Positions 50,603-53,795 of a DNA stretch of 53,795 nt are shown one piece after another. The DNA is taken from UHGV virus genome UHGV-0191815, one strand, 5' to 3'. This DNA is from a virus. Under the pieces are notes generated by a model. That model made no database searches, was not told the DNA's origin, and saw only the letters and a program-made list of their open reading frames with translations. Each line of letters opens with the position of its first letter. The stretch's first letter is position 1. A program made the translations under genes and the position numbers.

Positions 50603-53600
50603 ATGAGTAGCGGCGGCGGCAAAGCCAAAACACCAACATTGTTAAACGATAACCTGTTCCACAAACAGTTTTATCGCGTTTTGGACATTCTCAGCGAGGG
50701 ACCAATATATGGCCCTGTAAACCAGAAAGCGCCATTAAACAGCGTGATGCTCAATGACACGCCTATCACTGACACAAACGGAAACACGTCAGTTCCCGGC
50801 GTTAGCGTGGCGTGGCGCAATGGTACGGCTGACCAGTCACCAATTAACGGCTTCAACGCTATTGAATCAACGGTTATCGTCAACGCAAAAGTAACTCACG
50901 ATACACCAATAATCAGGACCATATCAGATCCAAACGTTAACCGCGTAAGGCTGAATCTTGGCGTTGATTCTCTGGTTCAGTCAGATGATAAGGGCAATCA
51001 GTACAATACATCCGTTACGTTGATGGTTGACGTTAAGCCTTCATCTTCAACAACGTGGTCACTGGTTAAAGATATTCACATTGGCCCAGGTAAACAAAGC
51101 GGTGAGTACCTAGAGGCGCACATCATCCAGGCGCCGGATGAAAAACCGTTTGATATTCGCGTTCGCCGCGTAACGCCGGACAGCACTGGCGATCTTCTTC
51201 ACAACGACACCAGGTGGAGCAGTTACAGCGAGATAATCGACGATAATTTATCTTATCCTCACACCGCTGTAGCGGGCGCGGTAATTGACCACGATCAGTA
51301 TACTGACACGCCGACACGCACCTATCACATGCGCGGGCTGATTGTTGACGTGCCTGATAACTACGACCCGGAAACACGCACATACTCAGGTTTATGGCTT
51401 GGTGGCTTCAAAAAGGCATACACCAACAACCCTGCATGGCTTTTCAGGTATCTGGTTAAAAATGAACGTTTCGGGCTTGCCCGCCACGCTGGTTACATAG
51501 ACGTTGATGACGGCGCACTGTATACGCTTTCTCAATACTGCGACCAGTTGGTAAACGACGGTTACGGCGGCCTTGAACCACGCATGACGCTTAACGCTTA
51601 CATCACTGAGCAAATGAGCGCCCGCGACTTGCTGGATAACATTGCAGGCATGTTCCGTGGTATCGCGTTATGGGACGGGCAGCGACTTACGGTGATGATT
51701 GATGCACCGCAGGATCCAATTGCCACCATCACAAATGCAAACGTCGTTGATGGCGCGTTAACTCGTTCAAGTATCGCTCGCGCAGAATCTTACAACGCCG
51801 TTATCGTGTCATGGACTGACCCGGAAAACGGTTGGGAGCAATCAAAAGAATACGTGGCGGATGATGAATTGATCGCCCGCGATGGTTACAACGAAACCAC
51901 GTTAGAGGCTTTTGGTTGCACATCACGCGGGCAGGCGTACCGCGCTGGCAAATGGCTGATAGAAACAGCAAAACGCGAACCCTCAAAATTCACGTTTAAA
52001 ATGGCCCGTGACGCAATTCACTTCACCCCGGGGGATATTATAGAGATACTCGACAATAACCGCGCTGGCGCTCGTTTGGGCGGTCGTATCGTGGCGAATA
52101 ACGGGAAAGTGATAACTGTAGACAAGGTTGATTCTGACCTGGTGGCGGCTGGTGACACTATCAGCTTACTGGACAGCGACGGCAAGTTTAAAAAACATCA
52201 GATCACTGGTGTTAACGGAAACAATATTACCCTTTCGGCTGCGCCCGCATGGATTCGTAACGGAACCGTATTTGCTGTTTCTACTGAATCCGCAAAACCT
52301 GTTCTGTGCAGAATCACCAGCGTAGCGGAAACAGAAAATAACAGCGTGTACACCATCGAGGCTGCACAGCACGATCCGCACAAACAGGCTGTAGTTGATG
52401 AAGGAGCAATCTTCGAGGTAAACAACGACACGCTTAATCACTTCCGCGTGCCGAACATTGAAAATCTGAAGGTGTTAAACGTTGGTTCTGAGACAGTACA
52501 ATGCCGCGCAACATGGGAAACACAGACGACAACGCATCGCCTGACCTTTGAAATACGCGTATATAACACCGAAGGCCGCATTGTGGCAACTTATGAAACC
52601 ACGAATTACCGCTATGACTTTTATGGCCTCGACGCTGGCAGCTACACGCTTGGTATTCGCGGGCGTAATGACACTGGCATGAAGGGTGCGGAAAGTATTG
52701 TTGACCTGGTTATTGGTGCGCCAGCGGCCCCGATTGGAGTTAATTGGGTTCCAGGTGTCTTCCAGGCAACGGTATATCCGATCAGCAAAACAACCCTGAC
52801 CACTGACACGGCATATGATTTCTACTACTCAGGTGAAAATCAGATCACTGACCCGTCAAAAGTAACCACGCTGGCGCAATTCGCCGGGCGAGGCTACCAA
52901 TGGACTTTTGGCGGCATGAACACGGGACACACCTATTACGTTTATGTGCGCGCGCGTAATGCCTTTGGTGTGTCAGACTTCGTTGAGGTATCAGGTAAAC
53001 CAACTGAAAACTTCGACGAAATCAGCGACTACGTGATGAAGGATGTCATGGAGTCAGAACAGTTCAAGGGCATGATTGGCGACATTAAAGATCTTGGCGA
53101 CCGCGCTGATCTTATCGAAAGCGCTACAAATGACCTGAAAAACGCTACTGATAACCTCAAAACTGCAACTGACAACCTGACAAACATCACTGACGAATTG
53201 AGGACTGACACGGACGGCCTAATCACAGAGACAGGGGCCATAAAAGCTGACACAGACGCACTGAAAAAAGAGACGGAAGATCTTTATAAAAAGGTTGGGG
53301 AAAACGCCGACGATATTGGACAGCATGAGGCAAGAATAGATTTGCTGGAGGTATCCAGCGAAAAAGTTGACAGTGAACTGGCGCAAGCAAAAGCAAGCCT
53401 GCAAAACGCGTCATTGGCGCTTATCAATAACTCACTTGCACAGACAAACACGCGGGTTACTCTCACTGCCCAGTACAAGAAAGGCAGAACAGAGACGAAG
53501 GCTGAAATTGACCGAATTGACAACGTTATTGCTGATGAGAAACAGGCCACGGCTGAATCGCTGAAAACCATCACAGCAGAAATGAACACGATGGATTCTA

Positions 53601-53795
53601 ACCTCAAAGGTCAGATCTCAAGCGTGGAACGCGCAGTGGCTGACGAGGCCAGTGCCCGCGCTGAAGCAATTAACAACGTTAACGCATCAATAAACAATCT
53701 CGACAAGAAAACCGACGCCAGCGTGAACCGCCTTGATCAAGCTATTGCCGACGAAACCAGTGCCCGTACCCAGGCTGTAAGCGATGTGAAAGCCT
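50603..53795 (+). CDS. J: Tail tip / host-specificity protein J (N-terminal 1064 codons; runs off the window end and probably continues at nt 2..1363)
   Basis: Strong collinear similarity to lambda gpJ (...ILSEGPIYGPV..., ...DIRVRRVTPDSTGD..., ...EAFGCTSRGQAYRAGKWLIETA...); no stop before the window end; RBS aggag. Confidence 0.9.
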   Translation, partial: MSSGGGKAKTPTLLNDNLFHKQFYRVLDILSEGPIYGPVNQKAPLNSVMLNDTPITDTNGNTSVPGVSVAWRNGTADQSPINGFNAIESTVIVNAKVTHDTPIIRTISDPNVNRVRLNLGVDSLVQSDDKGNQYNTSVTLMVDVKPSSSTTWSLVKDIHIGPGKQSGEYLEAHIIQAPDEKPFDIRVRRVTPDSTGDLLHNDTRWSSYSEIIDDNLSYPHTAVAGAVIDHDQYTDTPTRTYHMRGLIVDVPDNYDPETRTYSGLWLGGFKKAYTNNPAWLFRYLVKNERFGLARHAGYIDVDDGALYTLSQYCDQLVNDGYGGLEPRMTLNAYITEQMSARDLLDNIAGMFRGIALWDGQRLTVMIDAPQDPIATITNANVVDGALTRSSIARAESYNAVIVSWTDPENGWEQSKEYVADDELIARDGYNETTLEAFGCTSRGQAYRAGKWLIETAKREPSKFTFKMARDAIHFTPGDIIEILDNNRAGARLGGRIVANNGKVITVDKVDSDLVAAGDTISLLDSDGKFKKHQITGVNGNNITLSAAPAWIRNGTVFAVSTESAKPVLCRITSVAETENNSVYTIEAAQHDPHKQAVVDEGAIFEVNNDTLNHFRVPNIENLKVLNVGSETVQCRATWETQTTTHRLTFEIRVYNTEGRIVATYETTNYRYDFYGLDAGSYTLGIRGRNDTGMKGAESIVDLVIGAPAAPIGVNWVPGVFQATVYPISKTTLTTDTAYDFYYSGENQITDPSKVTTLAQFAGRGYQWTFGGMNTGHTYYVYVRARNAFGVSDFVEVSGKPTENFDEISDYVMKDVMESEQFKGMIGDIKDLGDRADLIESATNDLKNATDNLKTATDNLTNITDELRTDTDGLITETGAIKADTDALKKETEDLYKKVGENADDIGQHEARIDLLEVSSEKVDSELAQAKASLQNASLALINNSLAQTNTRVTLTAQYKKGRTETKAEIDRIDNVIADEKQATAESLKTITAEMNTMDSNLKGQISSVERAVADEASARAEAINNVNASINNLDKKTDASVNRLDQAIADETSARTQAVSDVKA

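Follow-up and report, generated by a model that had tools for sequence, protein, structure and literature searches.

The two ends of the UHGV virus genome UHGV-0191815 (53,795 nt, a stretch which we call the window) lie within a single gene, coding for a large tail protein, J, with tandem repeats of 36 amino acids. We consider that the window is a contig bounded by an exact repeat in this gene, that part of the repeat array is missing from it and that the real J is longer; we give this explanation as a whole a probability of about 0.85. J would have 1516+72n amino acids and the genome would be a circle of 53,790+216n bp, where n is probably at least one. The first-pass annotation had proposed that the ends meet within one J gene, which agrees with the joined reading frame and with the collinear genomes of related phages. 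It had also proposed a circular or circularly permuted assembly of about 53,790 bp: The permutation of a complete genome stands, the size is only a lower bound.

In the mechanism that we suggest, the window would be a single edge of a short-read de Bruijn assembly graph (k=55), derived from an mEpimmI (mEp021) phage, a temperate siphophage of E. coli. This genome would be self-closing, and the assembler would have halted on either side of R, a repeat within the 108-nt repeat array of J. The contig would then start in the last 55 nt of R and stop in its first 55 nt, which leaves an apparent overlap of 5 nt. Copies of R in the real genome would be separated by a 111-nt segment, Y', which the window does not contain.

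The ends of the window and the J reading frame

The final five nucleotides of the window are identical to its initial five: It ends in ...GTGAAAGCCT and starts with AGCCTCAATAAG. When the window ends are compared, AGCCT is the sole suffix/prefix overlap in the range of 1–299 nt. Merging the ends by these 5 nt gives a single open reading frame of 1516 codons (50603..53795 + 6..1363), as the annotation had noticed. The features around the junction are the following:

50603..53795, + strand: 5' part of the J gene (codons 1–1064 and 1 nt), from the lambda-gpJ-like hub to the start of the stalk
53600..53795, + strand: 36-aa (108-nt) array up to the window end, with unit 1 and the larger part of unit 2
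53741..53795, + strand: first 55 nt of the exact 105-nt R, terminal k-mer vertex of the assembly edge (from comparison with scaffold_238, see below)
1..55, + strand: last 55 nt of R, R[51-105], whose nt 1–5 (AGCCT) duplicate 53791–53795 (same comparison)
2..1363, + strand: 3' part of the J gene (454 codons including the stop, TAA at 1361–1363), from the remainder of the array to the receptor-binding end
6..349, + strand: 36-aa array beyond the window start, with the remainder of unit 2 and with units 3–5

The frame is open with overlaps of 2, 5, 8 or 11 nt (1517, 1516, 1515 and 1514 amino acids, respectively), and any other overlap introduces a stop codon in J. Among those which leave J open, only the 5-nt overlap preserves the 36-aa register. 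The units are found at 53600–53707, 53708–25, 26–133, 134–241 and 242–349, so that the same repeat family is indeed present on either side of the junction; TRF detects the 108-nt period at 26–231. The motif [LIV][DE]xA[IV]A[DE]E appears at J residues 1008, 1044, 1080, 1116 and 1152, with a spacing of exactly 36 across the junction.

Related phages have the same arrangement. When the 70 nt around the inferred junction are used as a probe, with the junction at the centre, they align to contiguous J sequence in five of them, with no gap and with 8–12 mismatches. In mEp554 and mEp010, the two closest relatives, the left 60 nt and the right 50 nt have best matches which adjoin exactly. The join of the ends is more than a chance coincidence: The merged ends rebuild R base for base, and R is contiguous in an independent assembly, scaffold_238. 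Neither host DNA nor a stop codon was found beyond the ends, either of which would have spoken against the join.

The exact repeat and the missing segment

Breaks at exact repeats are a general artefact of de Bruijn graph assemblies. The window alone does not explain such a break, as exact repeats in the merged array reach only 26 nt; repeats within the window were thus rejected as its cause. The explanation comes from scaffold_238, an independent ENA assembly of the same phage: In the 28 kb which were compared, 13,739 nt before the window end and 14,604 nt after the window start, it agrees with the window at 100% identity. Within its J gene there is an exact 105-nt repeat, arranged as R-Y'-R. 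The last 55 nt of the window are R[1-55] and the first 55 nt are R[51-105]: The termini are the first and the last k-mer of an exact repeat with two contexts, and 2x55-105 = 5. Past the window end, scaffold_238 continues with 50 nt identical to window positions 6–55 and then diverges into the 111-nt segment Y', placed between the copies of R and missing from the window. The branch towards Y' is located directly after nt 55 of the window. On its left side R is preceded in scaffold_238 by U or Y', and on its right side it is followed by Y' or D. Together, R and Y' span 216 nt, or 72 amino acids, which corresponds to two 36-aa units.

The 5-nt overlap is therefore very probably an assembly artefact, with the signature of an edge in a de Bruijn graph whose k we deduce from the sequence as 55: Its length equals 2k-|R| for an exact 105-nt repeat, and it is no evidence of a clean circular junction. 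In its general form, this artefact places the contig ends on those k-mers which lie just inside the two boundaries of an exact repeat with a length above k. The present case differs from the usual one in that |R| < 2k: The two terminal k-mers share 5 nt and look like a minute terminal redundancy. In a contig of the same group, IMG/VR UViG_3300001919_000001, both ends also fall within the J array and overlap by 29 nt.

Other assemblies also cross the ends. A MEGAHIT contig extends across the window start by 24 nt. A Logan contig (k=31, run SRR7658653) begins at window position 145; its initial 30-mer is unique in the window and is also present at the Y'/R junction. Segments of the Y' type are found in eight contiguous relatives, with 7–15 mismatches in 111, and in these eight they start directly behind the X segment, which consists of the final 50 nt of R, with no base in between. 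Exact searches for Y' itself in viral and JGI metagenome contigs gave no match, and Y' is known from one assembly. No match to the merged junction (45-mer and 29-mer) was found in viral, genome and JGI metagenome contigs, and a collection of 15 billion proteins has no exact full-length entry for any J reconstructed with n=0, 1, 2 or 3.

The presence of Y' in scaffold_238 and its absence from the window lead to a J protein of 1516+72n amino acids in a circle of 53,790+216n bp. Since scaffold_238 extends beyond the window at both ends, with more J repeats, 53,790 bp and 1516 codons are lower bounds, and the 1516 codons of the annotation would not represent the full size of J. At least one 72-residue block is probably missing from J in the window, and scaffold_238 implies that n would be 2–3.

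An exact repeat of 105 nt is unusual: The longest exact repeat in the J genes of fully assembled mEpimmI relatives has at most 62 nt. It may come from a very recent duplication or, less likely, from an effect of mixed strains. The number of units would change by unequal homologous recombination between 108-nt units.

A difference of 154 amino acids from mEp010 and mEp554, beside the junction, was initially read as a real deletion or a collapse. Its crossover maps to window positions ~30–65, within contiguous sequence, and for this reason a real deletion seemed favoured at first. This reading has been superseded: scaffold_238 reveals that the crossover point is the branch between R-to-D and R-to-Y'.

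Other readings of the window ends

The simplest alternative is a clean circle closed by the 5-nt overlap, with 53,790 bp and, in the dominant phage, a J of exactly 1516 amino acids and five 36-aa units (n=0). Several observations agree with it. The merged sequence is in frame, in repeat register and collinear with the relatives across the junction; simple arrays with few units are known in mEp515, MagusPhagus and mEp013 (J of 1393–1504 amino acids); 53,790 bp falls within the range of the group (52,961–54,655 bp), and a subpopulation with n=0 is compatible with the data. Nevertheless, we consider it improbable. With a single R there would be no branch, and a k-mer assembler would leave a k-long overlap at an arbitrary position, whereas each end is found exactly 55 nt within a boundary of R, a repeat which was defined independently. 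Moreover, scaffold_238, from the identical phage, contains R-Y'-R, and a Y'-type unit directly follows the X segment in every contiguous relative which carries X.

It may also be noted that a mixed population which includes n=0 genomes would yield an identical assembly graph.

Less probable still is a mixture of strains, in which the metagenome would contain another, closely related phage as the source of Y': The phage of the window would have n=0 and the loop in scaffold_238 would be chimeric. The source sample is a metagenome, according to the record name, mEpimmI phages are common in gut samples (PMC11893012) and many relatives carry Y'-type units. However, the second strain would need 55-mers exactly identical to R on both sides of Y', and in the relatives no R-like sequence follows the Y'-type unit. 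A co-resident relative should also break the contig elsewhere, but the window forms a single piece of 53.8 kb, without any mismatch to scaffold_238 in the 28 kb compared.

Physical ends (virion termini or prophage borders) which fall in J and leave it truncated or split have in their favour only the linearity of the contig, and we have rejected them as practically negligible: There is no host DNA, the att site is internal and intact, J is contiguous in all relatives, independent contigs run through both window ends, and a small terminase similar to that of Sf6 suggests headful packaging, with no fixed ends.

The phage and its tail genes

The window is collinear with the mEp genomes: In the comparison with the six type phages, 73–97% of each query is covered, at ~89–93% identity. 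It crosses the att-site point where the GenBank records of mEp phages are opened, and it is contiguous across the ends of these records; it is therefore a circular permutation of a complete phage genome. The region of the cI-like repressor lies within the matches to mEpimmI genomes, a group for which shared immunity (group I repressor) and Nus-dependent growth are characteristic. The identity of the J gene to these relatives is 84–95% (about 90–95% of the nucleotides for the closest known system). These comparisons place the phage, as a new member, in the mEpimmI group of temperate coliphages, which has been published.

The tail genes and the signals around J are:

43655–45994: TMP_3, tape measure (Pfam)
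48678..49382, + strand: gene for minor tail protein L (Pfam Phage_tail_L, E 2.5e-72), part of the L-K-I-J tail-tip module
49289..50116, + strand: gene similar to tail assembly protein K (Pfam NLPC_P60 and Prok-JAB), a tail assembly protein in mEp010 and mEp554
50059..50589, + strand: gene for tail assembly protein I, directly upstream of J (annotation in mEp relatives)
50591..50595, + strand: Shine-Dalgarno sequence of J (AGGAG), 7 nt before the ATG at 50603
1369..1389, no strand assigned: bidirectional intrinsic terminator after J, common to a convergent ORF of 82 aa (1395–1643, - strand)

J is placed after the tape measure, M, L, K and I genes, as in the lambda gpJ type, with the L-K-I-J order of lambda. 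An identical protein I is found on at least 24 public contigs, where the next gene is J or, in some of them, an inserted HNH gene. Here no HNH gene lies between I and J, a difference from mEpimmI relatives.

Structure of the J protein

J consists of an N-terminal hub with FNIII and Ig domains (about 1–810), a predicted alpha-helical stalk, a tail-tip fibre domain and a putative receptor end. In the 3' part of the gene, the order is repeat array, conserved helical stretch, tail-tip fibre domain and receptor-binding end. The domains outside the 36-aa array are:

50864–51244, + strand: FNIII-A (Pfam)
51605–52078, + strand: Phage-tail_3 (Pfam)
52427–52723, + strand: Ig_J (Pfam)
52727–53035, + strand: Ig_J_second (Pfam)
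from about 53012, + strand: start of the helical stalk
53123..53290, + strand: eight tandem heptads (ATNDLKN ATDNLKT ...), J 841–896, a 21-nt DNA repeat with a hydrophobic period of 3.51
545..988, + strand: Phage_Tail_Tip, central straight fibre, J 1245–1392 (PF09327, E 4.9e-38)
989..1360, + strand: putative receptor-binding domain, formed by the C-terminal 124 aa of J and similar to the LamB type

FNIII-A_GpJ, Ig_J, Ig_J_second and Phage_Tail_Tip are each above the Pfam cut-off. A match of the repeats to SF-assemblin (E 0.004, below the cut-off) was dismissed as generic coiled-coil resemblance.

The predicted stalk has ~430 amino acids, formed by the heptads followed by the 36-aa units, probably as a parallel trimer. 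TRF detects a period of 21 at 53118–53178. The hydrophobic period is 3.51 over J 811–957 and 3.60 over J 965–1233; with a period of 3.6 residues, each 36-aa unit would correspond to 10 helical turns, about 5 nm. A single-sequence AF2 model is helical over J 804–1233; it is a poor model (pLDDT 53), used for secondary structure only. With an alignment of 27 sequences, AF2 predicts a single helix over J 1073–1225 (pLDDT 96–98) followed by a beta-meander. The stalk leads to a beta-structured tail-tip fibre domain, and then to the putative 124-aa LamB-type receptor end. The top Foldseek matches of the model of the tail-tip domain are the lambda central tail fibre, 8xcj/8xci.

Judging by these homologies, J is a tip attachment or central tail fibre protein of the lambda gpJ type. 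In a phmmer search against PDB, 8iyk_J 1–858 aligns to J 1–851 (E 1.1e-184). Lambda J 839–1004 aligns to J 1240–1413, which leaves an insert of about 390 amino acids between both regions: J is much longer than the lambda protein, as the annotation had pointed out (1132 amino acids in lambda, 1516+72n here). Both proteins have the same order of hub, FNIII, helix bundle (AHS), central straight fibre and receptor-binding domain (PDB 8IYK, 8XCJ; Nat Commun 2024, PMC11101478). Lambda has a short three-helix bundle, while the stalk described above takes its place here. The alignment ends at J 1413, and the last ~100 amino acids have no detectable sequence similarity to the lambda receptor-binding domain. 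By analogy with lambda (PMC11101478) and with LamB-dependent phages whose C-termini are 72–89% identical, J would be a homotrimer in the virion, binding an outer-membrane protein as receptor.

Variation among mEpimmI phages

Size-variable J proteins with repeats have already been published for this group (PMC11893012). The gene type and its variable repeats are thus known, and our finding is an ordinary one, with nothing surprising to a specialist. The annotation had suggested that the number of repeats may vary, and it does: Named relatives have 2–11 units (J of 1393–1828 amino acids) and IMG/VR relatives 0–10 units (1318–1813), that is, 0–11 units and 1318–1828 amino acids overall. Among the homologues of the J C-terminus in databases, many are incomplete.

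The N-terminal 810 amino acids are 92–99% identical to those of mEpimmI relatives, which share an architecture of variable repeats, a conserved stretch and a variable receptor end (PMC11893012). The array described here lacks the second 118-aa module of mEp010, mEp554, mEp021 and mEp044, and mEp554 has two more heptads. The C-terminal 124 amino acids are 72–89% identical to those of the LamB-dependent phages mEp010, mEp013, mEp044 and mEp554, and 18–23% identical to those of the OmpA-dependent mEp021 and mEp515; the receptors of these phages come from the assays of PMC11893012. This suggests that the J tip would be specific for LamB.

Comparison with fold-switching central fibres

Fold-switching central fibre proteins have been described in F-type pyocins and siphophages (He et al., bioRxiv 2026, PMC12874032). 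Residues 908–1165 of the F2-pyocin central fibre (25vf_A) align to J 1082–1345 (E 7e-28), and a helix of ~150 amino acids is predicted in J directly before a beta-prism-like domain, as in the F-pyocin fibre. The pattern SxSxxMxxLxS has 26 matches in 811–1305 (n=1 model), against 7.0 +/- 2.6 in shuffled sequences, a count which is not independent evidence, as the units are homologous copies. Each 36-aa unit has one reverse and one forward copy, which alternate (R/F), and an invariant Glu16/Arg20 pair (i to i+4) which resembles the salt bridges of fold-switch fibres (PMC12874032). The helical region of J is ~2.5 times longer than the 163-residue switch segment, and it is formed by tandem units in variable number. 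Both AF2 monomer runs (single-sequence and 27 sequences) give helix and no beta-prism for the repeats; the preprint used trimers, with shallow-versus-deep sampling.

[quoted passage not shown] Their copy number (0–11) might then tune fibre reach and stored conformational energy, and the exact 216-bp duplication might reflect ongoing expansion and contraction of the array in a natural population, a fast length switch independent of receptor specificity.

Significance

A tiny terminal overlap which restores a reading frame should be viewed with caution, as it can be a k-mer artefact which conceals missing sequence. In this case the genome and J, its longest gene, would both be 216n bp too short in the deposited contig. 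J is one more variant among those of mEpimmI phages, and its variable region is strictly a 36-residue helical repeat with a 3.6 period. [quoted passage not shown] The J series of mEpimmI phages, with 0–11 units and with arrays of 2–11 units on the same LamB-type tip, is a natural set for the effects of stalk length.

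Ends of the window and the J gene

J is a lambda gpJ-like tail-tip gene. It starts at an ATG at 50603, with AGGAG seven bases upstream, and its frame is open to the window end and off it.

Features of the window:
50603-53795 and 2-1363, gene J, across the window ends
1369-1389, bidirectional terminator, 3' of J
1821-4604, + strand, side tail fibre (927 aa) with a C-terminal Peptidase_S74 intramolecular chaperone domain
4849-6117, integrase gene
43655-45994, tape measure gene
48678-49382, minor tail protein L gene

The window ends in ...GATGTGAAAGCCT and starts with AGCCTCAATAAGC. 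The sole identity between suffix and prefix, for lengths of 1-299 nt, is AGCCT. Blunt joining of the ends leads to a stop at once, the frame stays open with overlaps of 2, 5, 8 or 11 nt, and only the 5-nt overlap preserves the 36-residue register, with the LDQAIADE motif and its variants at residues 1008, 1044, 1080, 1116 and 1152 of the merged protein. The merged ORF codes for 1516 amino acids, with its stop codon at 1361-1363. A 70-nt probe spanning the merge gives an ungapped alignment with contiguous J sequence in five relatives, and in the two closest ones the left and right sides find their best matches directly next to each other: The 5-nt merge thus restores a real J segment. The shared AGCCT, the open frame across the junction and the repeat family on both sides of it, all described in the first-pass annotation, are present in the sequence.

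Relationship to known phages

The window matches seven deposited phages (mEp554, mEp010, mEp044, mEp013, mEp515, mEp021 and MagusPhagus), with genomes of 52,961-54,655 bp which are collinear with it in gene order. Identity is 83-95% in J; in the rest of the genome it is 89-93% for the mEp phages and 86-87% for MagusPhagus. These are temperate, non-lambdoid coliphages of the mEpimmI group (PMC11893012), and the window phage is a new member of this known group.

The GenBank mEp records open at the att site, a point which the window crosses unbroken: The end of the mEp010 record corresponds to window 4101-4730, its start to 4734-6766. Host DNA, whose presence beyond either end the first-pass annotation had named as refuting evidence, is therefore absent from the window, which is a circular permutation of the whole phage genome with its sole break in J. 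Headful packaging would fit the small terminase, which is Sf6-like. A direct repeat of 11-12 nt, TTGTGTACCAAA (2.2 copies, 4661-4686), lies about 50 nt before the opening point of the mEp records (4731-4734), upstream of the integrase gene.

A repeat at the break

The side tail fibre protein is also on record on other public contigs. One contig with an identical fibre, scaffold_238 of ENA ERZ28619853 (54,493 bp), matches the window without a difference in the 13,739 nt that precede the window end and in the 14,604 nt that follow its start; it reaches 482 nt past the end and 216 nt ahead of the start. These extensions show an exact 105-nt repeat, R (GCTATTGCC...CGTCTCGAT). Copies of R are separated by Y', 111 nt coding for KAIADETQARSAAITEVKADLTTLESNTNASVKRLDQ and missing from the window. 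R and Y' together (216 nt) code for two 36-aa units.

The last 55 nt of the window are nucleotides 1-55 of R, and its first 55 nt are nucleotides 51-105. For the long edge between the two branch vertices of such a repeat, these ends are what a k=55 de Bruijn graph must produce; the overlap is 5 nt because 2x55-105 = 5. The break point in J is not arbitrary. Two other contigs are consistent with such a graph: One, from MEGAHIT, crosses the window start, reading 24 nt beyond it, and the other, a Logan contig (k=31), begins at window 145, its starting 30-mer being unique in the window but common to the Y'/R junction.

Eight contiguous relatives have a Y'-like unit (7-15 mismatches in 111) whose first base directly follows the final 50 nt of R. 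On sequence comparison, Y' is bona fide J sequence. The genome has the structure U-R-(Y'-R)n-D, where U and D are the flanking parts of J, and the window shows n=0. Closing scaffold_238 gives either n=2 (a 271-nt end overlap, with J of 1660 aa and a genome of 54,222 bp) or n=3 (an end overlap of 55 nt, with J of 1732 aa). Full-length J proteins with n=0, 1, 2 or 3 have no exact entry in a collection of 15 billion proteins, and exact searches of viral and JGI metagenome contigs gave no match to Y', so far seen in scaffold_238 alone. A mixed population including n=0 genomes is possible. The preferred reading is that J has probably been split by a routine assembly artefact, which conceals at least one 72-residue block. 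The first-pass annotation was right in placing both ends in one J gene; the junction it took as complete probably hides the sequence seen in scaffold_238.

A similar break is found in IMG/VR UViG_3300001919_000001 (54,639 bp, mEpimmI-type; loci L046/L048), with both ends in the J array and a 29-nt end overlap. Merging them would leave only about two units; this is probably the same kind of repeat collapse, with a smaller k. [quoted passage not shown] This suggests that short-read assemblies of E. coli routinely cut J arrays off where a contig ends.

Variation in unit number

In the named relatives and the UMNK88 prophage, J has 1393-1828 aa and 2-11 motif-defined units; in 40 IMG/VR loci, 1318-1813 aa and 0-10 units. 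All length differences are in frame, in multiples of units or modules, and unequal recombination would fit them. Size differences and 'repeats of different length' in these proteins have already been published (PMC11893012). Within the LamB-type phages, arrays have 2 to 11 units, so unit number does not follow the receptor. A second copy of the roughly 118-aa module LQNASLALINNSLAQTNTRVTLTAQYKKGR...IDRIDNVIAEEK lies within the array of mEp010, mEp554, mEp044, mEp021 and the UMNK88 prophage (L001, L002, L004-L006); this higher-order duplication spans some 650-680 nt and is lacking in the window phage, MagusPhagus, mEp515 and mEp013. Distant repeats of the 36-aa type (32-41% identity) are found in J of Klebsiella and Enterobacter siphophages.

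Neighbouring genes

The side tail fibre gene also varies among relatives, in sequence and length (595-1056 aa), and appears to be a second variable locus for host range. An 82-aa ORF, 1395-1643 (-), is convergent with J and shares its terminator. It has no Pfam match, and its MagusPhagus counterpart is annotated as a lipoprotein. For mEpimmI phages a superinfection-exclusion lipoprotein has been discussed, and this ORF is a candidate.

Small reverse-strand ORF islands (46534-48381) lie within the forward-strand tail module, between the tape measure and L genes, and resemble moron or toxin-like cargo. The 84-aa ORF 46534-46788 (-) has its counterpart in a ParE_like (PF24732) gene of identical or related contigs, where the 82-aa ORF 47773-48021 (-) has a weak ANT match. 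An HNH endonuclease gene (PF13392) lies between I and J in mEp021, mEp515 and three metagenome or genome contigs (relatives' loci L005 and L008, both 2437-3003; L053, 10546-10899; L056, 10544-11110; L058, 10546-11109), and L056 has a second one ahead of the minor tail protein gene. In the window, the I-J gap (50589-50603) is merely a 13-nt spacer, with no HNH gene.

Domains and predicted fold of J

Genes of this kind are already known, and J is an ordinary example.

Pfam domains (J residues) and heptads (window coordinates):
88-214, FNIII-A_GpJ
335-492, Phage-tail_3
609-707, Ig_J
709-811, Ig_J_second
1245-1392, Phage_Tail_Tip
53123-53290, eight tandem heptads, within J 811-957

Lambda gpJ 1-858 aligns to J 1-851 (E 1e-184) and 839-1004 to J 1240-1413, so J has about 390 extra residues where lambda has a short three-helix bundle, the AHS (PMC11101478). 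For this insert, structure prediction gives helix. A single-sequence AF2 model makes 804-1233 helical with low confidence; with a 27-sequence alignment, a single helix (1073-1225, pLDDT 96-98) is followed by a beta-meander, and the lambda central fibre is the best structural match. The hydrophobic period is 3.51 in the leading stretch of the insert (811-957) and 3.60 in the 36-aa units (965-1233), equal to ten core positions per unit. The consensus of 133 distinct units from relatives is KTDASVSRLDQAIADETSARAQAISGVNASISTLDS, with Glu16 and Arg20 invariant. The last 124 residues of J show 72-89% identity to J of the four LamB-dependent mEp phages and 18-23% to J of the two OmpA-dependent ones, as defined by published receptor assays (PMC11893012).

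In an F-type pyocin, a 163-residue coiled coil at the equivalent position becomes a beta-prism upon receptor binding, a switch predicted for many siphophage central fibres (preprint, PMC12874032). F2-pyocin fibre residues 908-1165 are homologous to J 1082-1345 (E 7e-28). The SxSxxMxxLxS pattern of that study occurs once in reverse and once forward in each 36-aa unit; 26 matches compare with 7.0 +/- 2.6 in shuffles, weak evidence since the units are homologous copies. The Glu16/Arg20 pair resembles the salt bridges described there. Neither AF2 run (single sequence; 27 sequences) gave a beta-prism, so fold switching of the J repeats is kept as a hypothesis.

The lambda central fibre is a gpJ trimer (PMC11101478). 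By analogy, three J chains would form a parallel helical bundle, which would gain about 5 nm per unit and keep the receptor-binding tip clear of the hub.
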